From: a virus
Strand: one strand, 5' to 3'
Virus genome (UHGV): UHGV-1681856
Length of the DNA stretch: 17,730 bases
This document shows positions 962 to 16,006 of this stretch, piece after piece. The position numbers and the translations under genes are program-made. The notes under the pieces are model-generated. The model searched no databases and was not told the DNA's origin. It saw only the letters and a program-made list of their open reading frames with translations. Each line of letters opens with the position of its first letter. The stretch's first letter is position 1.

Positions 962-1547
962 ATGCCGATTTAACTTTTTTGCCGACGTTGGCTAATTTGC
1001 TTGCAATCTGACTACTCGTCTTTTTTATTCCCTGCTCGGTGTTTAAATCGATGATTTTTGTCTGAACAAGTCTAATCTCTCTAAATGTCAGCGAGCATCT
1101 AATCAGTCGTTCGGTTCCACCGGCGGCTCGAAGGTAGCTATACCCGGTAATGGCGCAATTTGTGTAGACAGTTTCGGGAGTTACTATCGTGAATAAACTT
1201 GTAGAATTTGCAAGTGCTTCAATCTGGCTCAGAAAAGCAGAGCGACCGACCGTGCCGCCGGTCGACTTGATTAAAGACACTGAGACATCAAAGCCGCCGG
1301 ATACTTTGTTCAGACTACCAAACCCACCCGCTTCGATTGGGTACTGCGACACTTGGGAATTTGAAGAGTATTCAACGGTTTCAACGGAATCCACAAGCAG
1401 AAGCGGGATTCCGTTTTGATTGTAGATACCCCATTTTTCGCCGAGTATCAGATTTGTAAGCTGACTGCCCGCGAAGGATAAGATGCTATTCGTTAGCCCA
1501 TTCCCCAGTCCGGGGATTTCGGGGAATCCGATGGATGACCATTTCAT
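951..1547 (-). CDS. Hypothetical tail protein immediately downstream of tape measure (198 aa)
   Basis: ATG overlaps the tape measure stop (ATGA-type 4-bp overlap at 1544..1547), suggesting translational coupling. Position matches the distal-tail/baseplate-initiator slot of contractile-tail phages. Confidence 0.45.
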   Translation of the reverse strand: MKWSSIGFPEIPGLGNGLTNSILSFAGSQLTNLILGEKWGIYNQNGIPLLLVDSVETVEYSSNSQVSQYPIEAGGFGSLNKVSGGFDVSVSLIKSTGGTVGRSAFLSQIEALANSTSLFTIVTPETVYTNCAITGYSYLRAAGGTERLIRCSLTFREIRLVQTKIIDLNTEQGIKKTSSQIASKLANVGKKVKSAFGL

Positions 1548-3220
1548 CTTATTGACCTCGAATGCTGTGCGATGCTAGAGGATAGGGCGCGGCCCATATC
1601 GTTACCAGTTCCAGACATTGTACTTGAGGATGTCGAGACGTTGACGCTATTAATGTTTACCACGTTACCGCCGGCTACAGAAGAGGGTGGAGTGGAGTGG
1701 GATAGGGATGGGATGGAAATGCCGAATTTCGGCAATTTTGCCTCGCCAATCGGAGTTCCGTGAACATGATATGCGTTTCCAGTTCCGAATTTGTATCCAG
1801 TGGCGGCAGATTGTTGCTCTGCCTGTCGAACCCATCTTTTTGTTGCGGCAGATGCCTGCCCAAGGAAATTCGGGTTGGCGTAATGAGTATTCCCGCCGAT
1901 AGTTGACTCCATGCCTGCATTCCTCGCTCTCAAGTGGGCAAGCACGGAAGCGCGAAGGCGCGGAGAGACTCTGGACATCGGGACATTTTGCACCGTTCCG
2001 TAAACCCTCCCACCGCCTTTGAGTCCGGCGGGGTTGTTAATTGCACTGAATGCCCACTTCTGGTTAATAGCGCCCCTGACCGAGCCCTGATACGCAGCAC
2101 GGTTCAGAATTGTATCCACGACGCCACCCACTTGCTTTTGGTACTCAGATTGATTTTTGAGCGGAGTTACTTCCGTTGCCGAGACCCTTAGAATGTCGTC
2201 AATGTCTTGCTGAGACAGAATGAGCTTTCCGTTTTTAAGTCCAGTTGTCCTTCTGTTTCCGTATTGACCATTTGTTGTGCGGGCTGGGATTGCGGACGCA
2301 GATGGGGATGTCGAAGAAACCTTTTCTTTCACCCAGTTTGCGGCTTTTGATGTCGCGTTTCTAATTCCGCCTGTCGCTTTTGACAGTGTATCGTTTTTCT
2401 TCCCGAGAAAGCTATTTATGATTTCTGCAAATGTAGTCAGCGCTGGGATGATTGAGTTGCCGAGCGTAGTGGCCATGCGCTCAAGCTGAATATTCAGCTT
2501 CGCTTTGTTCTCTACAAGCTTTTTCGACTCTTCAATGTCTTTTTCCGATGTCTCGGCGGCGGATTCACTTTCTTTTAATAGTCTTTCGGCCTCACTGCGC
2601 CCGCGGACGAGCATGTTGAAAGTGCCATCGTCAATACCCATGCCTTGCGCGATTTGATACGCTTGTTGACGGTCCATTTTGCTAAACGCATCCGACAAAT
2701 CAAGCATGACGTCATTCAGTTTGCGGGCCTTGCCGTCTGCATCAAGCATTGATACGCCGATTGCATTAAAGAACGGAAGCATTGAGCTGTCGCCCTTCAT
2801 TTGCAAGTCATTCATTGCTTTCGACATCGCGGCTAGAGAGTTTTTTGCAGAATCAGCATTGCCGCCAGCCATCTCCACGGCATAAGACCATTTTTTAAGC
2901 TCGGTGGCCGACACACCGATATTCGCGCTGAAATCACCCGTACTGGCGTTTGCGCTTGCAATCTTCGTTCCAAGAGCAATGAGGCCGGATATAGCCCCGA
3001 CGGCGGCCACACCAACGGCGACCACGCCGCTGGCTAGTGCGCGGGAACCTTTTGCAGCGCTGGCCGCACCGCTACCGATTGAAGAAAACGACTCCTCAAC
3101 CGAGACGGCCTTTTTCTTTGTTCCGTCAAAACTCTTTTCAAGCTTTTTAGCTGACTTGTCGTACTCTTTTGTATCAAGCCCGATTTCTACATATAGTTCG
3201 TCAACCTTATGACTGGACAT
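1544..3220 (-). CDS. Tail tape measure protein (558 aa)
   Basis: Largest ORF of the tail module, directly downstream of the chaperone and its frameshift extension. Low-complexity Ala/Gly/Ser-rich and predicted helical segments with a hydrophobic stretch (VVAVGVAAVGAISGLIALG), typical of tape measure proteins. Confidence 0.7.
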   Translation of the reverse strand: MSSHKVDELYVEIGLDTKEYDKSAKKLEKSFDGTKKKAVSVEESFSSIGSGAASAAKGSRALASGVVAVGVAAVGAISGLIALGTKIASANASTGDFSANIGVSATELKKWSYAVEMAGGNADSAKNSLAAMSKAMNDLQMKGDSSMLPFFNAIGVSMLDADGKARKLNDVMLDLSDAFSKMDRQQAYQIAQGMGIDDGTFNMLVRGRSEAERLLKESESAAETSEKDIEESKKLVENKAKLNIQLERMATTLGNSIIPALTTFAEIINSFLGKKNDTLSKATGGIRNATSKAANWVKEKVSSTSPSASAIPARTTNGQYGNRRTTGLKNGKLILSQQDIDDILRVSATEVTPLKNQSEYQKQVGGVVDTILNRAAYQGSVRGAINQKWAFSAINNPAGLKGGGRVYGTVQNVPMSRVSPRLRASVLAHLRARNAGMESTIGGNTHYANPNFLGQASAATKRWVRQAEQQSAATGYKFGTGNAYHVHGTPIGEAKLPKFGISIPSLSHSTPPSSVAGGNVVNINSVNVSTSSSTMSGTGNDMGRALSSSIAQHSRSIR

Positions 3221-3449
3221 TTGTCAAACTTTCGTAATGTTTATTAAGTAGGTATTCGTTAAACGATGATATACAAACAACATCCCATAAATTAAGCGCA
3301 TCTTCGTATGAATAGACCGTCTGGAGCTCGTGCAGGGTGCACATTCTAGATGCAACAAGGCCGGATATTACTCGCGTCAGATTCTTGTTTTGAATCTGCC
3401 TGCACGGAACTTCAGTTGCGATAATATCCGGCGCTCGACGGCCAATCAG
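3207..3449 (-). CDS. -1 frameshift extension of the tail assembly chaperone (80 codons; G-T-like fusion product of about 227 aa)
   Basis: The -1 frame relative to the chaperone is open for 80 codons from the slippery site to a TAA at 3207..3209, which overlaps the tape measure ATG at 3220. Translated by hand: LIGRRAPDIIATEVPCRQIQNKNL...NKHYESLTNVQS. Confidence 0.6.
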   Translation of the reverse strand: MIGRRAPDIIATEVPCRQIQNKNLTRVISGLVASRMCTLHELQTVYSYEDALNLWDVVCISSFNEYLLNKHYESLTNVQS

Positions 3450-3889
3450 AAATTTATATGAATCATGAATGCATCAAAGCGAAGCTTCCAAAATGTCCGG
3501 AAATCCTCGATGTCGCCCAAATCGTGGCTGATTGGACGAGCGCGGCCGCCGTCGGGAATGAACTGAACGCAACTTAAAAGCTCATCTAGAATCGGGATTG
3601 ATACAGACGATGGAACCATTCCGAAAACATTAAAAGACGCATTCAACAGGCCGATAACACCATCTTGAGGGTCAATTTCTTTAAGTGCCGCTAAGTCGCC
3701 GACACTCTCAATCGCAGTGCCAGTTGATTCACTAATGAAATTCGTCAGGCTGACACCGGAGCTTGCAATGGCGGAAAGCATTCGCATGGCGAGGTGGTCA
3801 AATTTAAAAGCGGGCATTTCAGTGATTAGAAACTTCTTGCCTGCGTCGCGTCCTTTTTCAATAACGACTACTTGTTCTTTGAGTGCCAT
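3446..3889 (-). CDS. Tail assembly chaperone (147 aa), zero-frame product
   Basis: Sits between the tube and tape measure genes, ends with a slippery heptamer, and has an open -1 frame downstream. This matches the lambda G/GT and P2 E/E+E' arrangement. Confidence 0.6.
   Translation of the reverse strand: MALKEQVVVIEKGRDAGKKFLITEMPAFKFDHLAMRMLSAIASSGVSLTNFISESTGTAIESVGDLAALKEIDPQDGVIGLLNASFNVFGMVPSSVSIPILDELLSCVQFIPDGGRARPISHDLGDIEDFRTFWKLRFDAFMIHINF
3449..3455 (-). promoter_or_regulatory. Slippery heptanucleotide A_AAT_TTC (X_XXY_YYZ) for programmed -1 ribosomal frameshifting
   Basis: Minus-strand sequence ...ATA AAT TTC TGA; the heptamer AAATTTC sits immediately before the chaperone stop codon. 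Confidence 0.6.
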
Positions 3890-4328
3890 TACGCAATTTC
3901 CTCTTCTGTAATACTATCGATATCAAAAACAAATGTACCGGCCGACACCATATTTTGAACGGTCAATCCAGCAAACGATGTCATAAACCCGCTGAACGTC
4001 TGCCGGATTTTAAGCCCCGGATGCTCGATAACAAAGTCAAACACATAGGCGTCTTTTTGAGACTTCATTGCTTGATAGCAGTTTGTCAGTGCTGCACGCG
4101 AATTTGAGTTTGCCTCTAAGTCGATTGTCATTTTTGGAGAGCCGAAAACAAAGCCACCAGACAAGATGCCGTCAACACCGCGAACGGTTACGCCGACATC
4201 GGTATCTGAGATGCTGATTGCGCTGTCTTCTTTGAAGCCTTCAAGCTTGACGTATGTGTCAGAATATCCGCGCGCCTTCCAGAGAATCGTCGCACCCGAG
4301 CCGGACAATAATTTATCAGAAATAGCCA
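3889..4328 (-). CDS. Tail tube protein (about 146 aa)
   Basis: Small ORF between the large putative sheath gene and the chaperone. I place the start at the ATG at 4328, which is preceded by AAGGA (minus strand TAAGGATTTAAAAATG), rather than the upstream GTG at 4353 used by the ORF track. Confidence 0.5.
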
Positions 4329-4382
4329 TTTTTAAATCCTTAAATAGCCGCACTAATTAGAATACGGCTATTTTATTGAAAA

Positions 4383-5870
4383 TTACAGAACGTTTGTAGA
4401 AGTTACGTTGATTGCGATAAGCGAGCCGCCATCTGTATACCAGAATTTAATCGGCATAGATTGACGGGATTGTCTAATCTGTGGAGTTGCATCCCCGATG
4501 TGAACATAAAAGCCGTTCGCATAGATCTGAGACGCCGCATCAATTCCGGTATCCGCGTTGATTTGCGCAGCCTGAAGATTTGACAGCTTAACACCGCTTC
4601 TAATTGAACCGAAATTAAGGGCCTCATCAATTACATCTTTCATTGCCGCGCGAATGTAGGCCTTGCCTTCGGAGTTGTACGGGATGGATTTAACATTCAT
4701 CAGCATCTCAACGAGCATCAGTTGGAACTGGGAGTTAATGCGGATTTGGTTGATATAGTTGTCAATCCATTTAAACGAGCCTGAAACTTGGCCTGGGTAG
4801 AAGCTGAGGAATCGGTCGGCCGCCGTTGCCCAAGCCCCGTAAAAGTTGTATCCGTTTTCAATAAGCCTGTTCGCTTCAGATTGGTTTGTAACGTCGGCAG
4901 CTAGGCCGTCTTGGCGTCGGAACGCATAGTTAATCCTGCCGTTTCGCTCCGACCAGTCGACGGAAGCGATGGCGCCGGCGAGGAATGCGGCTTTTTTGTA
5001 CCCCTCATTGCGTTTTGCATAAATCAATGCAACGCCGTTCAGGTTGATGTTTTTAATTTGCGCGCCGAGTGATGAATTTGAACCTGTAAGCGCATCATCG
5101 TTTTCATCCCACAGAATAGTGAGGAATCGCTTATTACTGTCATTTGCCCAGTTGGCGGCAATCAGCTTGACGGGATTTGACAAGTTTACAAGCGGCACGA
5201 GCGAAACCCAGTTCTGATTAGACGCTTTGATGTTGTTCAGAATGTCATAAATCGAAATAGCCGCACGGCCGGGTACGTTAATTGTCGAGCCGAGCGTAAG
5301 GCCGAGATAACCCGATGCGGCGTTTTCAGTGAACGAAATAACTTGACTCGGTCCGGATGCTTTTGTGGAGATAACGAGTTGAGAGGTTGTCTCATTGTAC
5401 GCAGCATTCACATCGAAAGCAGTTGAGATTGCGGAGGCCAAATCCGTGAACGTAGAAATGGCCGCAATCTTGTCGGCGGTAAGTTTTTTTTCAACGCCGG
5501 AAATGCTTGCAATCAAATCTGTTTTTGAGCGTTTTGCATTATCGAGCGAATAAGGGCTCACCTGCGCACTGTAAACGCGAGCGCCGATTTCTTGCGGGTT
5601 GTATTTGTAGAAGTGAATAAGACCGGGCTTCCGAGATGAATTTTCGTACCCATTAAAATACGCCGCCGCCGCCTTGTACTCAATAGAGTTTGTGCCGAAA
5701 ACCGCCGCCACGTCATCAGGATTGGAATAGCTGACTACTTCGTTATCGGGGATAAGTTCGGAATACGATAAAAACATGCCATTAAATGACAATGCATTGC
5801 CACCAGCCGAGAGTACGGCGGGCTGTACATTGACAATCATTGATGCTGGAATAGATTTAAATGTCGCCAT
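4383..5870 (-). CDS. Tail sheath protein (495 aa)
   Basis: Size and position directly upstream of tube, frameshifting chaperone and tape measure match the sheath slot of contractile-tail phages. No motif verified. Confidence 0.5.
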   Translation of the reverse strand: MATFKSIPASMIVNVQPAVLSAGGNALSFNGMFLSYSELIPDNEVVSYSNPDDVAAVFGTNSIEYKAAAAYFNGYENSSRKPGLIHFYKYNPQEIGARVYSAQVSPYSLDNAKRSKTDLIASISGVEKKLTADKIAAISTFTDLASAISTAFDVNAAYNETTSQLVISTKASGPSQVISFTENAASGYLGLTLGSTINVPGRAAISIYDILNNIKASNQNWVSLVPLVNLSNPVKLIAANWANDSNKRFLTILWDENDDALTGSNSSLGAQIKNINLNGVALIYAKRNEGYKKAAFLAGAIASVDWSERNGRINYAFRRQDGLAADVTNQSEANRLIENGYNFYGAWATAADRFLSFYPGQVSGSFKWIDNYINQIRINSQFQLMLVEMLMNVKSIPYNSEGKAYIRAAMKDVIDEALNFGSIRSGVKLSNLQAAQINADTGIDAASQIYANGFYVHIGDATPQIRQSRQSMPIKFWYTDGGSLIAINVTSTNVL

Positions 5871-6770: not shown

Positions 6771-7195
6771 CTCTTAACTCTCCACGTTACCGATCGCGCC
6801 ATCGTTGAGGTATCAATGAGGGGGTTATTGAACCCCTTTTTTGCAACTGTCGATGGGGCGTTCGGCGGGTCGTCCAGTTTCACAATCTCTTCTTTGATTT
6901 TGTTTACTGTGAACTCACCGAGAAACGAGAGAACCTTCTCGACAGGTGCGCCGGAACTCATAAACTTGCCGGCAACTCTGGAAAGCTGATTGCCGTGATT
7001 GGCGAGAGTAAGGCGCATAAAAGGGCGCGGCGGGATTTTGTCCGTACCGTACTCGTTGTAGTACGCGACCTGCGCCACATCTGTTCCATCTGCGTACTTT
7101 GCGCCGTCAACAAATCCAACTTGCAGATTGCCTGCATCTTTAAAATCTGCCGACAGCTTCGCAACTCCGACTGAAAACTTATTCCCGCCTCGCAT
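6767..7195 (-). CDS. Virion morphogenesis / head-tail joining protein (Mu gpG or HK97 gp10-like, 142 aa)
   Basis: Contains PPRPFMR and DPPNAPSTVAKKG...NPLIDTSTMARSV, which resemble motifs I recall from head-tail joining / virion morphogenesis families. Position just after the capsid block fits. Confidence 0.5.
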   Translation of the reverse strand: MRGGNKFSVGVAKLSADFKDAGNLQVGFVDGAKYADGTDVAQVAYYNEYGTDKIPPRPFMRLTLANHGNQLSRVAGKFMSSGAPVEKVLSFLGEFTVNKIKEEIVKLDDPPNAPSTVAKKGFNNPLIDTSTMARSVTWRVKR

Positions 7196-7740
7196 TACCT
7201 TCTACGCCTCACATATCTGAATGCTCGATACTTCGCCGTCATTTGCCAAAATGTCAGGCCCCACGACGTTTGAGCGAACCATTGAGCTTGTGACGACACC
7301 GCCCCGGCATTGACCGATACCGAAACCGAACCCTCGGACGCGGATGTGATTTGCCCTGTCAGTCCGCCATTCGCCGCTCGTCGTTCAAGCTCTGCAAAGT
7401 GCCGCATCAGCAGCATGAGCAGCATTGAACGCTCTTCCGTGCATCGGACTTGAGAACACGGGGAGTTTGAAACAATTTGCGTCGCTTGGAAAAACCAGAA
7501 CCGCAACCGCGCATTGCTCTCATCTCGGATTTCAGGATAAAGGTCACGGAAAAGCTCGGGGTCAAGTTCAACAATCCCATCGGTCAATGCAGCCTTCTCA
7601 GCCTCTTTCTGCTCAAGTTCCGAGATGAGCTTTATTGCGGCTGCGTCGAACTTTTCCTCATAAGTCTGAGGAGCGGTTGGTTGGGCTGGCGCTGGCTGAA
7701 CAGGGGATGGTTGTGCGAACGGCGAGGTGGCGGACGACAT
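7195..7740 (-). CDS. Hypothetical head-tail connector region protein (181 aa)
   Basis: Pro/Ala/Gln-rich N-terminus followed by a helical segment. ORF abuts its neighbours (2-bp gap upstream, 1-bp overlap downstream). Confidence 0.4.
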   Translation of the reverse strand: MSSATSPFAQPSPVQPAPAQPTAPQTYEEKFDAAAIKLISELEQKEAEKAALTDGIVELDPELFRDLYPEIRDESNARLRFWFFQATQIVSNSPCSQVRCTEERSMLLMLLMRHFAELERRAANGGLTGQITSASEGSVSVSVNAGAVSSQAQWFAQTSWGLTFWQMTAKYRAFRYVRRRR

Positions 7741-7741
7741 T

Positions 7742-8017
7742 TTATTTATCTTCCGTTACAGCGCCGCCGGCAGCAGGGTCGACGGGCGAAATGTCGGTTT
7801 CTTCGGTAGTCAGAACATTTGCGTTTGATTTTTCGGCAAACTGAATGTACCCGGCTTTAAACGCATCAGACTCTTCAATAATGGGGCGCAGGGTTTCAAA
7901 GCGGTCGTTCGGTACATCCGTGATATTTTGGGCGCCGAGGATGGTGGACGTGTTGGTACCATTGATGACAACACCATCAAATTCGACAGCAAAGGGCATT
8001 TTGGAAAATACTTTCAT
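7742..8017 (-). CDS. Small structural protein downstream of major capsid (91 aa)
   Basis: Good translation-initiation region on the minus strand (GTAAGGATTAAAAATG), separated from the capsid gene by a stem-loop. Confidence 0.4.
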   Translation of the reverse strand: MKVFSKMPFAVEFDGVVINGTNTSTILGAQNITDVPNDRFETLRPIIEESDAFKAGYIQFAEKSNANVLTTEETDISPVDPAAGGAVTEDK

Positions 8018-8031
8018 TTTTAATCCTTACT

Positions 8032-8047
8032 CCCCGCCGAAGCGGGG
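8032..8047 (-). promoter_or_regulatory. Stable GC stem-loop (CCCCGC-UUCG-GCGGGG on the transcript) between the major capsid gene and the next gene
   Basis: Perfect 6-bp GC stem with a UUCG tetraloop read on the minus strand; no U-tract follows on that strand. Likely an mRNA-stabilising or partial-termination element boosting capsid transcript levels. Confidence 0.35.
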
Positions 8048-8054
8048 ATTTTAG

Positions 8055-9044
8055 TTAGTTAGAGCAGAGAATTTGAGCAACAGCAAACGGAAAGGCTACA
8101 ACAGAGCCGTACGAAGTCTGAGACAGCTTCTGCAAGATGTACGAGCTATGTTGTTCGGGGCGATGCGTACGCAGTTTTTCGCCGTACGCAGGCATGATGT
8201 TCGGCTGTCCGTCGATGTCTCTCGCAATCATCTGAACCAGATGGCCTGCACCGGTTGCAAATTCGGGCAGCGTCCAGACTTCGAGGTTCGGATATGCTTT
8301 TTTCAGCGTATCGAACACAGTAACGCCAAACTGGTTGACTTTCAGCATGTGCTCTGCTTCAAATTCGGGCGACATCAGCAGAATGAGATTTGAATCTCGA
8401 TACGTTGACTCATTGCCAACTTTTCCTTTTGTCTGCGCGGCCAGTTTCGCAAACAGCTTATTGATTTCAGTAACGACACCAACGGCATCTTTTGTAGCCC
8501 AGCCAGAAGAGGCGGCGGCAGGGGATAACGACGGGTCGTTAGTAAAACCGTAGTTCTTCAGGCCCCTCACGCCGGAGATATACGTCTTGTTCTGAAAACG
8601 ATTTAGCGTCAAAGCAGATGCCCTCAGCACGCGCGACGTGAAGTCGATAGCCGCATTGCCGTACATCTCGGATTCCAAATCACCGAACCGCGCCCACGTT
8701 TGATAGCGGAAAGACTGACGTGTTTCGGGGTAAATGTTAACGCTAGATCCGCCGCCGTTTTCGTAATCGCCATATTTAACAGACTCACCGGTAGGCTCGG
8801 CAATCATGAACACTGCCGTATCAGTAGTCCAGTCACCCTTCTGGAACTCACCAAAAATTTGAGCGGCACGCGCAGGGGCTAAAACTGCATCAATGACATT
8901 TTGGTCAATGTATGAAGTAAGTAGCGGATGAATGCCGAGTGCGGCGGTTGTCTGAATGACGTTCGCACTGTCGGAAAGTCGACTGAAGATTTGTGGGTTG
9001 CCATGCAAGTGGATGCCGACGTCTTTTAAAGTTGATTTTGCCAT
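8055..9044 (-). CDS. Major capsid protein (329 aa)
   Basis: About 36 kDa ORF following the scaffold and small Gly-rich protein genes, and followed by a hairpin. Position and size are typical of a major capsid gene. Confidence 0.6.
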   Translation of the reverse strand: MAKSTLKDVGIHLHGNPQIFSRLSDSANVIQTTAALGIHPLLTSYIDQNVIDAVLAPARAAQIFGEFQKGDWTTDTAVFMIAEPTGESVKYGDYENGGGSSVNIYPETRQSFRYQTWARFGDLESEMYGNAAIDFTSRVLRASALTLNRFQNKTYISGVRGLKNYGFTNDPSLSPAAASSGWATKDAVGVVTEINKLFAKLAAQTKGKVGNESTYRDSNLILLMSPEFEAEHMLKVNQFGVTVFDTLKKAYPNLEVWTLPEFATGAGHLVQMIARDIDGQPNIMPAYGEKLRTHRPEQHSSYILQKLSQTSYGSVVAFPFAVAQILCSN

Positions 9045-9056
9045 TTTCTTAAGCTC

Positions 9057-9542
9057 TTATCGTTTAGAAATAATACACATTCCGCCTGCATCTGCTGCAC
9101 TTGAAACGATCCAACCGGTTTTAGTGTACCCGGAAAGAGAATCGCCATCAGCAAAGCCAGGTACACCGCCGGCTTTTGCAAATACGCTTTGACCGACCTT
9201 TGCAGCCGAGGGGGCAGAAATCCAGAAGTCGCCGCTATCGTACACAGTGACAGCCAAACCTTCAGGGATGATTTTCACGCCGTTCTCGTTTGGCGCGATG
9301 TGTGCATATGGGAAAATACCGCGACCGACGAAGCCAATCAGGCCGCCTGAACCTGATAAAGTAGCGGGGATAGAACCGCTTGCCGCACCGTCTTTCACAA
9401 AACAGAATTGACCCATTGTTACACCGCCGGCAGCAGCAACGATTTGGCCTTCTTCGGATGCGATAGTTGAGTGCGGGTTGGCGGATGCGAAATCGCCGGG
9501 ACCGCCGGATGCTTGACGCATACCTACATTTTTTTGAAACAT
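9057..9542 (-). CDS. Gly-rich head structural/decoration protein (161 aa)
   Basis: Gly/Ala-rich small protein between the scaffold and capsid genes, a slot commonly occupied by a head structural or decoration protein. Confidence 0.4.
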   Translation of the reverse strand: MFQKNVGMRQASGGPGDFASANPHSTIASEEGQIVAAAGGVTMGQFCFVKDGAASGSIPATLSGSGGLIGFVGRGIFPYAHIAPNENGVKIIPEGLAVTVYDSGDFWISAPSAAKVGQSVFAKAGGVPGFADGDSLSGYTKTGWIVSSAADAGGMCIISKR

Positions 9543-9556
9543 GTTAATAATCCTCG

Positions 9557-10672
9557 TTATAGCTTAGTGATTCGACTGATATATTCACTCTCAATCGCGC
9601 CTGCTTGCAAAGCGGAATCGGAGATTCGGGCGGCATTTTTACTTACCGCACCAAACAGCGCGCGCAGACTGCTTGCTGGAACGCCATCAAAGTCGACGCC
9701 CATCTTTTTCAGTGCGGAAGAGTAAATCTCTTCAGCCGAATCGGAAAGGGTGTCGCCAATGACTTCACGGCATTCGATTGCAGCAATACGAGCGTCACGG
9801 CTCGATTTGTTGTTTGCTTCAATCGCTTTGGAAATCAGAGCATTTACAGCAGAGTCCGAGAGATTTTCTTTTCCAGCTTTTGAATCATCTTCAGCAGCTT
9901 TTGAAGAATCCAGATTATCAGGTTCTTCATCTTTAACTTCAGATTTCCCATCTTTGCTTTCAGTTTTTCCATTTTCTGTGCTTTCGTCACTTACGTTATC
10001 ATCTTGCTTAATTTCACTGACTAAATCAGCGAGCGCCGCGGACACGCCGTCATCACTCAATGCCGATTCGTCTGATTTCAGCGCCTTTTTCAATCCTGCA
10101 ATCAGATTTAAGATTTCATCCATTTGAGATACCTTTTCCGCGCTGTCAGAAATACGCACATCGGAGCCAGCGCGGCCAGCTCCAACAAGCGCCACATGGT
10201 TTGCAACCATGCCAACAATAACACCGTCATAATCGACGCCGTCATCCGTCTTACCTGCCGCCATATTAACACTACACTTGTAATCGCAGGATAATTCAGT
10301 TTTTTGGTCGGATTCGACAAGTGCAATAGCCTCCTCATCCCAAATTGTGATTGATGCCTTCAGATATTTGCCGTCAAATTCAACGTCCGACGAGATTGTG
10401 CCGATGATTTTGGCCTCGGAGAGGTTTTTGCTGTGCTCGTTGTAAAGCGGAACATCGGTAAAGCCCTTTGCGCACTCTTTGAGCGCTTCCGGCGAGCGGT
10501 AGATTTTATAAATCTTGTTCGGCTCAAGCTGCTTGGAAACGACGCCCTGTAACTCTGAGCCGAGGTACTCATTTACAACGGCCTTGCTGATATTGCACTT
10601 TGCTACACGAAGGTAACCTGTTTCGTCTTTTTTCCTGCTTGTGCCTTTTTTAATTTCGTATACGTTTTTCAT
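9557..10672 (-). CDS. Capsid scaffolding protein (371 aa), possibly with an N-terminal protease-like domain
   Basis: Long, highly acidic Ser/Asp/Glu/Lys-rich low-complexity centre (DESTENGKTESKDGKSEVKDEEPDNLDSSKAAEDDSKAGKEN) typical of scaffolds. Sits between the minor head and capsid genes. Confidence 0.5.
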   Translation of the reverse strand: MKNVYEIKKGTSRKKDETGYLRVAKCNISKAVVNEYLGSELQGVVSKQLEPNKIYKIYRSPEALKECAKGFTDVPLYNEHSKNLSEAKIIGTISSDVEFDGKYLKASITIWDEEAIALVESDQKTELSCDYKCSVNMAAGKTDDGVDYDGVIVGMVANHVALVGAGRAGSDVRISDSAEKVSQMDEILNLIAGLKKALKSDESALSDDGVSAALADLVSEIKQDDNVSDESTENGKTESKDGKSEVKDEEPDNLDSSKAAEDDSKAGKENLSDSAVNALISKAIEANNKSSRDARIAAIECREVIGDTLSDSAEEIYSSALKKMGVDFDGVPASSLRALFGAVSKNAARISDSALQAGAIESEYISRITKL

Positions 10673-11419
10673 TTAAAGAATTTCCAAAACTGATTGAGAG
10701 AGGCATCGACATCCGTACTCCAGTCCGGGCTTTGTCCACTTGCCTTCAAGATAAGCCCCTTTTCTAATGTCATACTCCTTTCCATCGAATGCCAAATGCT
10801 CGGGACGGGGTGTTTTCCCGGCGTGTGAGTGCATCCATATTGCCTTTGTGATTCCGAGTGATTCGCGGCGCGCATCTTCGAGAATCGTTGTGGCGTAGTG
10901 GATTTGATTCCGGGCCAGCCTTTCAGCCTGTCTTTGTTTAATTCCGATGATTTCTCGGAATGCTTTTGACAGCTTCTGAATGTCAAATCCGGATGTCACG
11001 GAGTCGATGATTAAGTCCGAGGTCTTCTGTACGCCATAATCGACAAACTTCGCCACTTCTTCTGTATTCCTTGCAATCAGCGCTTGGACGGCGTCGTTCA
11101 TAAACTCGTCATACGGGAAGTCGACTTTAATGCTTGCCGCATCCTTGATTGACTTACCCATAATCTTGTCATTTGAGGCCATGACTTTCATTACGGCCCA
11201 GCGAACAGGTTCAGACAGCTTGTCTTTCGGTATCTCATGGCTACGACGCAGAGAAAGAATCGCATCGATTGCATCTGACTTTCTACCGAAGTGGCCGATA
11301 GACACGGCCTGTTTTGAAAACTGCAAGATTGCATTCTTTGCAAGTGTGTTTACTCGCTTAAAGTAACCGCGCTGCACGCCTGCATTAACCTGCGTTGGGG
11401 GTAGGATTATCTTTGCCAT
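10673..11419 (-). CDS. Phage Mu F-like minor head (head morphogenesis) protein (248 aa)
   Basis: C-terminal region WMHSHAGKTPRPEHLAFDGKEYD...GCRC resembles the Mu F / SPP1 gp7 head morphogenesis domain. Lies immediately downstream of the portal gene, as in Mu and SPP1. Confidence 0.65.
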   Translation of the reverse strand: MAKIILPPTQVNAGVQRGYFKRVNTLAKNAILQFSKQAVSIGHFGRKSDAIDAILSLRRSHEIPKDKLSEPVRWAVMKVMASNDKIMGKSIKDAASIKVDFPYDEFMNDAVQALIARNTEEVAKFVDYGVQKTSDLIIDSVTSGFDIQKLSKAFREIIGIKQRQAERLARNQIHYATTILEDARRESLGITKAIWMHSHAGKTPRPEHLAFDGKEYDIRKGAYLEGKWTKPGLEYGCRCLSQSVLEIL

Positions 11420-12839
11420 TACTTAGTCCTCTAATGATTTCATCGAACTCATCCGCATCGTCTCGTTGAACTTCGGGATAAATTGGCCGTTCCTCGGCAT
11501 CTAGTGAGCCGCGAATATCGTCAGAGCTTGCTGCGCCAACACTGGCGTACGCAACATGCATTCTGGATTTAATCTCTTGAATCTCGGCTTCTTCGCGTTC
11601 TGACATACTCATCAACGGATTGAAGATGAAATCAGCGTCATCTGTCCCGAACTCAGACATCTCAATCTGAGACAAAAGCCTTTGAATGAGGGGAAGTAGG
11701 CAGTTGTCTTGAATCCCTGCGATGAAGTCGTAATAGACCTTAATCTCGCCATCGCTCGATGCATTGAGGCCGGACGGCGTGATTCCGAGAAGTTTCACGA
11801 GCGGCACGCGAGCAACGGCTGACATTTGCTCTTGAGTCTGTCTAACTAAGTCAGCGATGCCGGAGAGCGGCGTAGCGAACTGGAAGAACTCTTCAGTTTC
11901 TTTGTTTAGTAACAGTAAGCCTCGATTATCACGGAATTTATTGAACAACTCTGCGCGCATTGTGAGTGCATTTACATCATCTTCCTGAAGCGAAGACATC
12001 ATGTCTGTCTTGATGCCTGACACAGAGTATGATTTCAACAAGTCTGCGGATGATTCAACGGCATTGTGCCAACGTCTAACGTACGGCCACATCACCTGAG
12101 TAAGTGAAATTCCGTGCATCTGATACATCGGCTTAATCATATCCACGACCGGGAACGGTACGACGTGAAGCAGATGGTCATGATGAACTTCGCGTGCCAT
12201 TAAGTACCATTTGTCGGGGTTGTACCAAGATGGTGACAAGGGGTTTGCCGTGTCGTATGAAATCGGGTTTGCGTAAATCCCATCAATCACAATCAGCTTT
12301 TTGACTTTTGATTCGCCACTCAGCGGAAGCCTCTCGTCGACGTTCGTGTTGTCAGTAAGCGATGCGGACATCAAAACCATCGAGCCGCCGTAAAACAGAC
12401 TAGAGACGAGGGCGTCACGGAATATCTTTCGTGCATTCAGTTTTTTAAGCTGATTAGTCAGAAACTCTTTGACTTCAGGGTTTTCGTGGCTTACCTCCCC
12501 CCACTCCCTGAGCGAATCGGAACTGATTGCATCTACCGCGGCGCGAATCTCCGGGATTTGGCTAAGGGAGGAGAGGGCTTGAAAGCCAATGAACCCGAAG
12601 TTCGCGGAACCTGTTTCTGCATAGCCCGCATTCAGCAAGCCGGCGGCGGACATGGCACAGGAGTCGGAAAGAGAGCTGCGGCCAACGCCGGCCACGGGAT
12701 TACGAACGCGGGCGGCGGAAAATCCGTCGAATTCGTCATTTTTAGCATTTTGTGCTAATTTCCTATACAGGGAACTTAGCATAATCTGCTTCTTTTCTTC
12801 CTTCTCTTGCTGTTTTCTGCTAAAAAACCGTTTAAACAT
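11385..12839 (-). CDS. Portal protein (484 aa)
   Basis: About 55 kDa ORF starting 3 bp after the large terminase stop and followed by the Mu F-like gene, the canonical portal position. Acidic C-terminal tail. Confidence 0.7.
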   Translation of the reverse strand: MFKRFFSRKQQEKEEKKQIMLSSLYRKLAQNAKNDEFDGFSAARVRNPVAGVGRSSLSDSCAMSAAGLLNAGYAETGSANFGFIGFQALSSLSQIPEIRAAVDAISSDSLREWGEVSHENPEVKEFLTNQLKKLNARKIFRDALVSSLFYGGSMVLMSASLTDNTNVDERLPLSGESKVKKLIVIDGIYANPISYDTANPLSPSWYNPDKWYLMAREVHHDHLLHVVPFPVVDMIKPMYQMHGISLTQVMWPYVRRWHNAVESSADLLKSYSVSGIKTDMMSSLQEDDVNALTMRAELFNKFRDNRGLLLLNKETEEFFQFATPLSGIADLVRQTQEQMSAVARVPLVKLLGITPSGLNASSDGEIKVYYDFIAGIQDNCLLPLIQRLLSQIEMSEFGTDDADFIFNPLMSMSEREEAEIQEIKSRMHVAYASVGAASSDDIRGSLDAEERPIYPEVQRDDADEFDEIIRGLSNGKDNPTPNAG

Positions 12840-12842
12840 TCT

Positions 12843-14204
12843 TTAAATCCTGTTCAGCATCTTGGTTGTGATACGCATCGCAGGCATTTCGAGCGACGCC
12901 ATAACTAAAGCATCCGCCATATTCGGGGACTTGATGCCCCGCTTCAGTAAGTCTGCTTTGCTTTCAACTTTAATCTTGCCTGACTCTGTGTACTCCATGT
13001 TCGGGGCGGATAGTTCAGAAATCAGGCCATCTAAATCCTTCAGATTCGGATTGATTGAAATCAACTCGCCTGTTTTGTACTTGGTGCCATTCTTCACTGC
13101 ATCGTGAGTCTTAACAAACTTCTCTCTGAGTGCGTACCACGCTTGAGCTTTTGCATTCTGAAAGACCTCGGAGTTCTTTTTGCCGTTCGGGTGAACTCTT
13201 GAGTCCGGCCTCTGCACTGCCTCACCCGCAATGAACGGATGGGACTTAATCCGGGACTTATTCATGTACGCCCTGACGCCGGCCCCGACGCCAATTGAAT
13301 CGTAGCGCAAAATATCAACAGCATGGGAATTGCAGATATTTTCTGCCAATCTTGCCGTCTCTATGACATCAACTCCGCCCCACGTCCTAATTTCCGATAC
13401 TTCTATGCCGTTCATGATGCACATAGCGTTCAGGTCCTGCCCCGTATCTGCTACGTCCAGCCCTGCACGGATAAGGCTTGTATTCCCAAGTCTGAGTTTC
13501 TGCATTGCATCAATAGCCGATTCAATCCATTCGTAACGGATGAACGCCGCTGACGAATCACCCGTTGGCTCGCCGAGCCATACATTTCTGTAAGCATCAA
13601 AGTCAATGCGTTTCAGATGTTCTGCCTCGGCGATGATTTCCGCCCCTGTTGTTTCATGGTCCGTGTAGTTGATTTTGATAGCTACGCAGTCTGGCGGAGG
13701 ATTAAGAACAAACCGCTCATACGCAAAGTCAGTCTTAAACCTCGGGTTGAACGTCACCCATATTTCGGACCCTGCTTTACGGATTGTAGGAATGAGAACC
13801 TGCCAGCTCTCATCCGGTACATTCTGAGCTTCTTCTACCCAGCAGATGTCTATACCTTCCATGGACTTTACGGAGTCAGGGTTGTGATGCAGGCCGGCAA
13901 AGACGAATCGACTTCCTGTTGCTGCATGTTTAATCTCAGTCTTCAGTATCTCGAACTCACCCGAATACCCCTTTGATTGAATCGTATTCTGTAAGAGGAG
14001 TTTCACTGACTCGTTGATTGACTTTTGTATCTCTCGTGTACAGAGGATAAACAGTCCCGCTCTTCTGGATAGCTCGATGAGAACCTCGGCCACTGCCCAT
14101 GACTTTCTAGATGCCCTTCCCCCGTAAGCCACTTTGTACCGATGAGGCTCTATGAGCGGGAGGAACTTTGGGTGCAGGGGCTCTCTATTCGCCATCACCG
14201 TCAT
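12843..14204 (-). CDS. terL: Terminase large subunit (PBSX-type, 453 aa)
   Basis: N-terminal Walker A-like YGGRASRKS and Walker B-like ICWVEEAQ, followed by a C-terminal nuclease-sized domain. The overall pattern matches PBSX-family large terminases as I recall them. Confidence 0.85.
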   Translation of the reverse strand: MTVMANREPLHPKFLPLIEPHRYKVAYGGRASRKSWAVAEVLIELSRRAGLFILCTREIQKSINESVKLLLQNTIQSKGYSGEFEILKTEIKHAATGSRFVFAGLHHNPDSVKSMEGIDICWVEEAQNVPDESWQVLIPTIRKAGSEIWVTFNPRFKTDFAYERFVLNPPPDCVAIKINYTDHETTGAEIIAEAEHLKRIDFDAYRNVWLGEPTGDSSAAFIRYEWIESAIDAMQKLRLGNTSLIRAGLDVADTGQDLNAMCIMNGIEVSEIRTWGGVDVIETARLAENICNSHAVDILRYDSIGVGAGVRAYMNKSRIKSHPFIAGEAVQRPDSRVHPNGKKNSEVFQNAKAQAWYALREKFVKTHDAVKNGTKYKTGELISINPNLKDLDGLISELSAPNMEYTESGKIKVESKADLLKRGIKSPNMADALVMASLEMPAMRITTKMLNRI

Positions 14205-14637
14205 CCTGTTTAGCCGCTTGCCTGAAAAGCTCGGTGAGCGAGGTCGTGTTCTCGGGCTTGGAGGATACGAGTACTTCGGACTTACTGCCCCAGTGTTTCG
14301 GGGCCATTCTTGCCGCGACCCACTTGCGGGCGTCGATTTGAAGCTTGGCTTTGGCGATGGCTTGAGCGTCTTCGTCTACGTTATCGGCTATGGCTATGAT
14401 TTGCTCTGCGTAGAAGGCGGCCTGTCCCTCGCGCGCGCGCGCGTACTCCTCTCTGAAGTTGCCAACGTCATTCTCAAGCCATCTGAACACGGTAGAAGGG
14501 GATGGCATTCCTTCATCTCTGAGGATGTCGGATAGGCTGCGCCCCTTCTCTAGTTCGGAGCATATCTTGCCACCGTGTTTTTCATACAACTCTAGCTGAG
14601 TGTTCGGCCTTCCGCGATTTTGTCCGTTTTTATCCAT
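14185..14637 (-). CDS. terS: Terminase small subunit (150 aa)
   Basis: Small ORF overlapping the terL start by 20 bp. Helix-turn-helix-like segment LSDILRDEGMPSPSTVFRWL and basic ARKWVAARMAPKHWG region typical of small terminases. Confidence 0.7.
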   Translation of the reverse strand: MDKNGQNRGRPNTQLELYEKHGGKICSELEKGRSLSDILRDEGMPSPSTVFRWLENDVGNFREEYARAREGQAAFYAEQIIAIADNVDEDAQAIAKAKLQIDARKWVAARMAPKHWGSKSEVLVSSKPENTTSLTELFRQAAKQDDGDGE

Positions 14638-15223: not shown

Positions 15224-15252
15224 GCCGCCCACTAGTTGGGCGGTCTTTTTTT
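15224..15252 (+). terminator. Intrinsic terminator downstream of rusA
   Basis: Stem CCGCCCA / TGGGCGG (7 bp plus a G-U) with loop CTAGT, followed by TTTTTTT at 15246..15252. Confidence 0.6.
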
Positions 15253-15260
15253 GTCCGGGT

Positions 15261-15320
15261 GTGCCGAAAATTGTCAGCTTGTGCCGTTTTTTTACGGGGT
15301 GAACTGACATTTTTTGTCAC
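15261..15320. repeat. 60-bp palindromic repeat, copy 1 (59/60 identical to copy 2)
   Basis: GTGCCGAAAATTGTCAGCTTGTGCCGTTTTTTTACGGGGTGAACTGACATTTTTTGTCAC. Internal dyad TGTCAG...CTGACA around CCGT-TTTTTT-ACGG, followed by T6. Confidence 0.8.
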
Positions 15321-15343
15321 TATTGTTTACGCACCAATATAAA
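15314..15343 (+). promoter_or_regulatory. Candidate promoter overlapping the 3' end of repeat copy 1
   Basis: -35-like TTGTCA (15314..15319), 18-bp spacer, -10-like TATAAA (15338..15343). Would drive the acidic-protein gene at 15437. Confidence 0.25.
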
Positions 15344-15863: not shown

Positions 15864-16006
15864 ATCAACTTTAAAAGGAAATTTGAAATGGTACCGTATG
15901 GGTGAAGATGAACAAGAAAAGGAGTGAGAACTAATTAAGAAAATACAGAAAGTTTTATAAGTTACTATTTATAAATTTACCATTTAACAAATTAAAGGAT
16001 TTAAAA

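Follow-up and report, generated by a model that had tools for sequence, protein, structure and literature searches.

The window, by which we mean the whole 17,730-nt stretch of the virus genome UHGV-1681856 that was analysed, is a myovirus virion module with genes almost all on the minus strand and a GC content of 47.7%. In the 5' to 3' order of the minus strand, the module comprises genes for the small terminase (14185..14637), the large terminase (12843..14204) and the portal (11385..12839), a MuF-like gene (10673..11419), a DUF2213 gene (9557..10672), a cement or minor capsid gene (9057..9542), the major capsid gene (8055..9044, 329 amino acids), an ORF of 91 amino acids (7742..8017), a head-tail adaptor gene (DUF4054/E217_gp27; 7195..7740), neck genes including a Neck1-like one, the tail sheath gene (4383..5870, 495 amino acids; PF11863/E217_gp31_N, E=1e-98), and the tube (3889..4329), chaperone (3446..3889) and tape measure (1544..3220) genes. 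The original prediction had named the gene upstream of the hairpin as that of the major capsid protein, and the assignment is solid: the protein belongs with phrog_264, a family of major head proteins (E=7e-49), tblastn links it to annotated major head proteins from Bcep1, OP2 and other phages, and it matches the major capsid chains of PDB entries 8frs and 9b40. The 91-residue product of the next gene has three homologues only among 5.8 billion proteins, and a comparison with PDB found no relative of it.

Two further features of the window were noted. A 225-nt apparent gap past a gene of 147 amino acids (3207..3455, minus strand) probably reflects programmed -1 frameshifting that extends a tail assembly chaperone. 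Here a slippery heptamer, A_AAU_UUC (3455..3449, minus strand), stands directly before the UGA stop codon (3448..3446), the -1 frame past the chaperone gene has no stop for about 88 codons, as far as position 3207 or so, and a long hairpin, GCCGGAUAUUA...UAAUAUCCGGC, begins about 14 nt downstream. The second feature is a 74-nt direct repeat on the plus strand, with copies that are 93% identical and 2393 bp apart (15260..15333 and 17653..17726) and that hold a hairpin of their own (UGUCAGUUCACCCCGUAAAAAAACGGCACAAGCUGACA). These repeats bracket an ORF of 100 amino acids, a gene for a YadA-like trimeric autotransporter adhesin (16007..17137) and a weak MazG-like match below the Pfam cut-off; this repeat-flanked cassette has the look of a moron. 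The adhesin, being of the YadA type, implies that the host is a diderm.

The capsid gene ends with a TAA codon (8057..8055, minus strand), and the spacer between this stop and the ATG of the 91-residue ORF measures 37 nt and occupies exactly positions 8018..8054. It is the largest gap of the head module, in which the other junctions overlap or are no longer than 14 nt. A hairpin with a UUCG tetraloop had been predicted to lie between the capsid stop and the Shine-Dalgarno (SD) sequence of the next gene, and this is what we find: the stem-loop U-CCCCGC-UUCG-GCGGGG-A (8048..8031, minus strand) has seven base pairs, six of them G-C and a closing U-A. Its arms are formed by U8048 with CCCCGC (8047..8042) and by GCGGGG (8037..8032) with A8031, and the loop occupies 8041..8038, so that C8042-UUCG-G8037 is a C(UUCG)G tetraloop closed by a C-G pair. 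The region as a whole reads ...UCU AAC UAA CUAAAA U-CCCCGC-UUCG-GCGGGG-A GU AAGGA UUAAAA AUG... on the minus strand. A single-stranded spacer of 6 nt (8049..8054) separates the stem from the capsid stop, and part of this spacer lies in TAACTAACTAA (8061..8051, minus strand), an element that provides stop codons in all three frames ahead of the stem. On the 3' side, the initiation region of the 91-residue ORF (8018..8030; GU, AAGGA, UUAAAA) contains the SD AAGGA (8028..8024) and precedes the AUG (8017..8015); the same context, AAGGAUU(U)AAAAAUG, is also present at 4339..4327 and 15995..16009.

The capsid hairpin has a predicted energy of -13.9 kcal/mol for its 18 nt (RNAfold), and its pairs form with a probability of 0.94-1.0 in contexts of 75, 140 and 240 nt. 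Only three compact hairpins (no longer than 22 nt, with -11 kcal/mol or lower) occur on the entire minus strand, and dinucleotide shuffles yield 0.10 hairpins of the capsid hairpin's stability per 17.7-kb strand, hence about 1e-4 expected by chance in one 37-nt gap. The raw energy is unexceptional among structures of up to 44 nt in the window (rank about 25), and all that sets the hairpin apart is its position and the perfect pairing of a compact stem. A search of the whole window with Rfam 15 at the gathering threshold returned no matches. The hairpin has the GC-rich stem and the short loop of an intrinsic terminator. The U-rich tract of 7-9 nt that should follow directly 3' of the stem was expected to be lacking, and it is: the 3' tail on the coding strand is GUAAGGAUU, with two U in the first eight nucleotides. 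The capsid hairpin is thus outside the intrinsic terminator class as defined. Terminators with U-tracts are present elsewhere in the window (15224..15244 and 17145..17163). On the plus strand the stem is followed by ATTTTAGTTAG, and a generic terminator scan calls a terminator-like site on that strand only.

Two diverged relatives of the phage, L001 and L002, were found in the protein database; their capsid proteins are 92% and 88% identical to that of the window, and the DNA identity is 84%. Both carry a hairpin at the equivalent position, CCU-CCCCGC-UUCG-GCGGGG-GCUU in L001 and CAC-GCCCGC-UUCG-GCGGGC-AAAC in L002, with the same C(UUCG)G tetraloop. The 14-nt hairpin core CCCGCUUCGGCGGG is invariant at 14/14 positions among the three lineages, and the sole stem change is a compensatory double change that turns the outer C-G pair into G-C. 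By comparison, 59 of the 161 four-fold degenerate sites in the two flanking genes (37%) are invariant over the same lineages, and under this rate an invariant core would have a probability of about 8e-7. Judged against this neutral rate, the capsid hairpin is under purifying selection. The flanks of the hairpin, 6-8 nt on the 5' side of the stem and 2-5 nt on the 3' side, are scrambled with indels in L001 and L002, and the tails, GUAAGGAU in the window, GCUUAAAG in L001 and AAACAAGG in L002, contain 0-2 U in eight nucleotides. The AAGGAUU of the initiation region is kept in both relatives. The three-frame stops of TAACTAACTAA are kept in part, with two TAAs remaining in L001 and a single one in L002.

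A further find in the protein database, L003, has a capsid protein 47% identical to that of the window and a spacer of 25 nt that lacks a GC hairpin. The capsid protein is no more than 43% identical to that of any GenBank phage, and megablast with positions 7000..9600 gave no match among GenBank phages. Scans with single proteins of viral and genome contigs for close relatives, a scan of metagenome contigs with the clade alignment, and a search of metagenome, genome and viral collections with a degenerate pattern of 29 nt taken from the beginning of the 91-residue ORF all returned nothing. The remaining finds are four contigs (L084-L087) that match the window at 100% identity and come from independent assemblies of several metagenome samples; the label of one is human oral metagenome (ERR589648/PRJEB6997), and the others carry cohort labels (also ERZ28663237 and ERZ27262891). 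The phage lineage is rare, and since only the two diverged relatives and these four identical contigs were found, the covariation rests on three sequences.

A second hairpin lies at the junction of the sheath and tube genes, and these two are the only intergenic hairpins in a late operon of roughly 14 kb. The sheath/tube hairpin, AAAUAGCCGUAUU-CUAAUU-AGUGCGGCUAUUU (4342..4373, minus strand; -15.0 kcal/mol), is located between the sheath stop codon (4385..4383) and the SD and ATG (4329) of the tube gene; the initiation context next to it, AAGGAUUUAAAAAUG, is shared with the capsid hairpin. It is kept in L001 and L002, where one pair appears as G-C, U-A or G-U over the three lineages and another two pairs have changed on one side. 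The true start of the tube gene is the ATG at 4329 (146 amino acids) versus the GTG at 4353 given by the ORF finder. Each operon hairpin is therefore found 3' of a gene whose product, capsid or sheath, is one of the two most abundant proteins in the virion. Sheath and tube proteins are needed at a ratio of 1:1 in contractile tails. As the second hairpin divides the genes for two such products, the purpose of the hairpins cannot be solely a lower expression of minor proteins, and protection of an abundant upstream gene also leaves part of the pattern unexplained.

In order to view the capsid hairpin in its wider family, we collected 80 loci by an alignment-based scan of IMG/VR (capsid proteins 39-44% identical) and dereplicated them at 85% DNA identity into 39 lineages. 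The best compact hairpin within 80 nt past the capsid stop has a median energy of -13.0 kcal/mol in these lineages, versus -7.2 kcal/mol in the 80 nt upstream of the capsid gene and -8.7 kcal/mol within the gene (paired Wilcoxon p=5e-7 and 3e-8, respectively). About 26 of the 39 lineages have a spacer of 40-130 nt in which a GC-rich hairpin precedes an SD and an ATG. Roughly 20 of these hairpins have U-rich tails and are canonical intrinsic terminators, and about six are U-poor (those of the window, L001, L002, L032, L044 and L079). A tight junction with no hairpin is seen in the other 13 lineages, which include a large group of PB1-like Pseudomonas phages; the PB1-like phage 14-1 is among those that lack a spacer after the capsid gene. 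Over the family, the distance from the stop codon to the hairpin ranges from 6 to 39 nt and that from the hairpin to the SD from about 2 to over 40 nt. From one lineage to the next the hairpins share no sequence relationship, a pattern that suggests selection on position combined with either repeated gain or fast turnover. The motif CUUCGG within 80 nt past the capsid stop is found in the mRNA sense in eight lineages and in the antisense in none, with a background expectation of about one; this orientation bias points to a role of the hairpin at the RNA level, on the coding strand.

Among named phages, the post-capsid hairpin of Bcep1 reads ...AACCGCC-UUCG-GGCGGUU-UCUUUUGU and that of OP2 reads CCCCGCCC-UUUC-GGGCGGGG-UUCUUUUUGU; vB_AsaM-56 and Acjo_20 also have canonical terminators after the capsid gene, and Klebsiella phage RCIP0114 has no post-capsid hairpin. 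Published transcriptomes of Pseudomonas phages (PMC10914365) contain no direct evidence on a post-capsid hairpin. In Bcep1 (L088, about 1306..1416), a promoter-like TTGACA...TATAGA is located 3' of the C(UUCG)G terminator, within the 109-nt spacer, and this phage may thus restart transcription past the capsid gene. In six distant relatives (L005, L008, L014, L016, L022 and L092, the last being BK070131.1), the post-capsid terminator hairpins are inverted repeats that resemble the DNA uptake sequences of Neisseriaceae, of the types GCCGTCTGAA, GCTGCCTGAA or GGTAGCC; one of these relatives is a prophage deposited as Helicobacter pametensis, and its motifs look foreign to that genus.

CUUCGG hairpins in the intercistronic mRNA of phage T4 were reportedly described for the first time in 1988. 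They share with the capsid hairpin the identical C(UUCG)G on a G-C stem between phage cistrons, and were first found in T4 mRNA as exceptionally stable structures (PMC4371310); the name denotes a structural motif and not a functional family, and by itself is silent on mechanism. Closer in position are the intrinsic terminators past the capsid gene, such as T-phi after gene 10 of T7, that of LUZ100 (PMC10134795), and those of Bcep1, OP2, vB_AsaM-56 and Acjo_20. These are likewise short GC-rich hairpins, that of Bcep1 even with the same C(UUCG)G loop, and they share a presumed purpose, a high expression of the capsid relative to downstream genes. They differ from the hairpins of the window, L001 and L002 in having a U-tract, and the spacers of Bcep1, OP2, vB_AsaM-56 and Acjo_20 measure 46-132 nt as opposed to 37-40 nt in the clade of the window.

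In mechanism, the best comparison is with 3' protective hairpins in bacterial operons. Hairpins with no U-tract stabilise the upstream cistron in malEFG and in many other operons of E. coli, some of which have consecutive hairpins (PMC5927463). Like the REP element between malE and malF and the structures of menBCE, the capsid hairpin is a stable U-less stem-loop directly 3' of the cistron with the highest need; menBCE has a second hairpin further along the operon, as does the phage late operon, and the structure is conserved in both. The phage hairpin differs in being a lone, minimal 7-bp C(UUCG)G stem-loop and not a REP element or a structure within coding sequence, and in belonging to a phage late operon, known here from sequence. 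As this class demands, the capsid hairpin is a stable non-terminator stem-loop within an operon whose co-transcription we infer from gene packing, and its structure is conserved in evolution (in the three lineages, with recurrence over the 39). A related arrangement is that of papB-papA, where RNase E cuts 5' of a hairpin and the cistron downstream is thereby stabilised (PMC5927463). Similarly, the capsid hairpin is intercistronic and has an AU-rich single-stranded stretch, CUAAAAU, just upstream; in contrast to papB-papA, the high-copy gene is located upstream and not downstream of it, and the phage case is again known from sequence. The papB-papA model could suit the sheath/tube hairpin better, as a high-copy gene is downstream there.

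We therefore regard the capsid hairpin, by analogy with these operons, as a possible barrier to 3' exonucleases that would stabilise the capsid segment of the mRNA through selective RNA processing and stabilisation, a reading to which we assign a probability of roughly 0.45. A post-transcriptional role is favoured because none of the three clade members has a U-tract and selection retains the hairpin itself. With a stem of six G-C pairs and a C(UUCG)G loop, which gives maximal stability at minimal length and makes this one of the most stable small RNA structures, the hairpin is expected to fold upon transcription. We infer a succession of read-through, cleavage, exonuclease blocking and a changed expression ratio, as follows. 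For want of a U-tract, RNA polymerase would pass the hairpin in the late (virion) operon, and the polycistronic mRNA would then be cut endonucleolytically in an AU-rich region 3' of the hairpin that is less covered by ribosomes. Exonucleases working in the 3'-to-5' direction, of the PNPase or RNase II type, would trim back and stall at the hairpin, so that the capsid segment would outlast the one encoding the head-completion and neck proteins, which are low-copy, and would yield more capsid protein per transcription event. The sheath/tube hairpin would likewise bound the next decay segment. Short motifs resembling RNase E sites (GG|AUU, GU|AUU) are present just 3' of the hairpin and are too short to serve as evidence. 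Most likely, the hairpin keeps capsid mRNA above the mRNA of the downstream minor proteins, and a hairpin of this kind is ordinary, well-known operon punctuation. The 13 lineages that cope with no hairpin, the PB1-like phages included, count against a stabilising role. The original prediction had offered stabilisation of the upstream transcript or attenuation of read-through, with a high ratio of capsid to minor proteins as the outcome. This pair of functions is a reasonable reading that the comparative data support in part: selection, recurrence in about two thirds of the lineages and the orientation of the loop are consistent with it, and the missing U-tract weakens its second member.

Several other roles were considered, none of which is mutually exclusive with an exonuclease barrier or with the others. 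Attenuation in its classical form, by read-through of a terminator, is weakened by the absence of the U-tract (0-2 U in eight nucleotides) in all three clade members, a tract that is integral to termination (bioRxiv 10.64898/2026.05.29.728758). A leaky non-canonical attenuator, at which some polymerases would pause or terminate, perhaps with the help of NusA, NusG or a phage factor, so that fewer transcripts reach the downstream genes, we consider unlikely though still worth weighing. A terminator directly past the capsid gene has been described for T7 and LUZ100 (PMC10134795), and U-rich tails follow about 20 of the roughly 26 post-capsid hairpins of the family, with Bcep1, OP2, AsaM-56 and Acjo_20 behaving likewise; as the positional equivalent is a canonical terminator in most related lineages, attenuation could be the ancestral role of this position and still be relevant. 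Yet the RNA polymerases tested in vitro fail to terminate at hairpins that lack a U-tract even with NusA and NusG (PMC3993855), and the same genome uses proper U-tract terminators elsewhere. Somewhat less probable in our estimate is a translational role, in which the hairpin would uncouple the 91-residue ORF from ribosome traffic on the capsid gene by blocking re-initiation or 70S scanning, or would partly hinder docking of the 30S subunit, or shield the SD from the upstream coding sequence, with the outcome that translation of this ORF would be set independently and probably at a lower level. The local geometry fits, as the hairpins of the clade begin 6-8 nt past the capsid stop and end 2-5 nt ahead of the next SD; nearly all other junctions of the operon overlap or span at most 14 nt, which allows coupling, and only the two hairpin junctions, each with the strong initiation region AAGGAUU(U)AAAAAUG directly 3' of the hairpin, differ. 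On the scale of the family, the variation of both spacings disfavours a role in ribosome geometry as the general function. In the minimum free energy structure for a short context, AGGAUU of the SD pairs with AAUUCU from the 3' end of the capsid gene, a pairing improved in L001 by a U-to-C change, but in contexts of 100-160 nt the SD takes other partners, which are not the same in the three relatives, and on average it is unpaired with a probability of 0.3-0.6. Sequestration of the SD by the capsid 3' end was consequently down-weighted, as the pairing vanishes or changes with the sequence context. Less probable again is a combination of these ideas, in which the capsid and sheath hairpins would both act as U-tract-independent 'cistron insulators' that block 70S re-initiation or scanning and add a factor-dependent pause or attenuation. 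If this were true, the clade would have swapped the canonical post-capsid terminator of its relatives for a purely post-transcriptional or translational device, and the family would offer a natural series for the interconversion of terminators and stabiliser hairpins.

The remaining candidates are far less credible. We find it improbable that the hairpin now lacks a function, whether as the decaying remnant of a terminator or as a palindrome that arose by chance. Terminators occupy the equivalent position in relatives, loss of the U-tract could be a first step of decay, and a third of the lineages have no hairpin at all; on the other hand, a 14/14 core where 37% would be the neutral expectation, together with a compensatory pair amid scrambled flanks, is not what decay predicts, and the chance expectation of about 1e-4 for the 37-nt gap speaks against a fortuitous palindrome. 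Least probable of all, and in our view very nearly negligible, is an intrinsic terminator for antisense transcription on the plus strand, TCCCCGC-CGAA-GCGGGGA followed by TTTTAGTTAG. The terminator-like site called by the generic scan and a weak promoter-like match just upstream (7983..8012, plus strand) would agree with it, whereas the T-run is not kept (AGGTTGG in L001 and GTGTTGG in L002), promoter-like matches in the window show no excess (19 versus 21.8 in shuffles), the UUCG loop is in the mRNA sense by 8:0 over lineages, and no conserved plus-strand gene is present. Three further candidates were rejected. A recoding stimulator past the capsid stop, for which gene 10A/10B of T7 is the reference case, conflicts with the three-frame stops TAACTAACTAA before the stem and with a stop-to-stem spacing that varies from 6 to 39 nt over the family. 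An RNase III site needs a double-stranded stem of roughly 20 bp or longer, and the stem here has only 7 bp with no robust extension in larger contexts. Finally, a hairpin made of host uptake sequences (DUS/USS) finds no enrichment of such sequences in the window, only single matches at chance level.

The capsid hairpin opens no long-standing question, and its main use is in annotating and engineering an uncultivated oral phage lineage, where it would mark a boundary of differential expression within the late operon. The E217/Bcep1-like capsid family obeys the rule that a hairpin follows the capsid gene, and the clade of the window presents a variant of it that lacks the U-tract. With a canonical terminator, a U-less hairpin and no hairpin all represented after the same gene, this one capsid family could be a small natural experiment on the stoichiometry of structural proteins.
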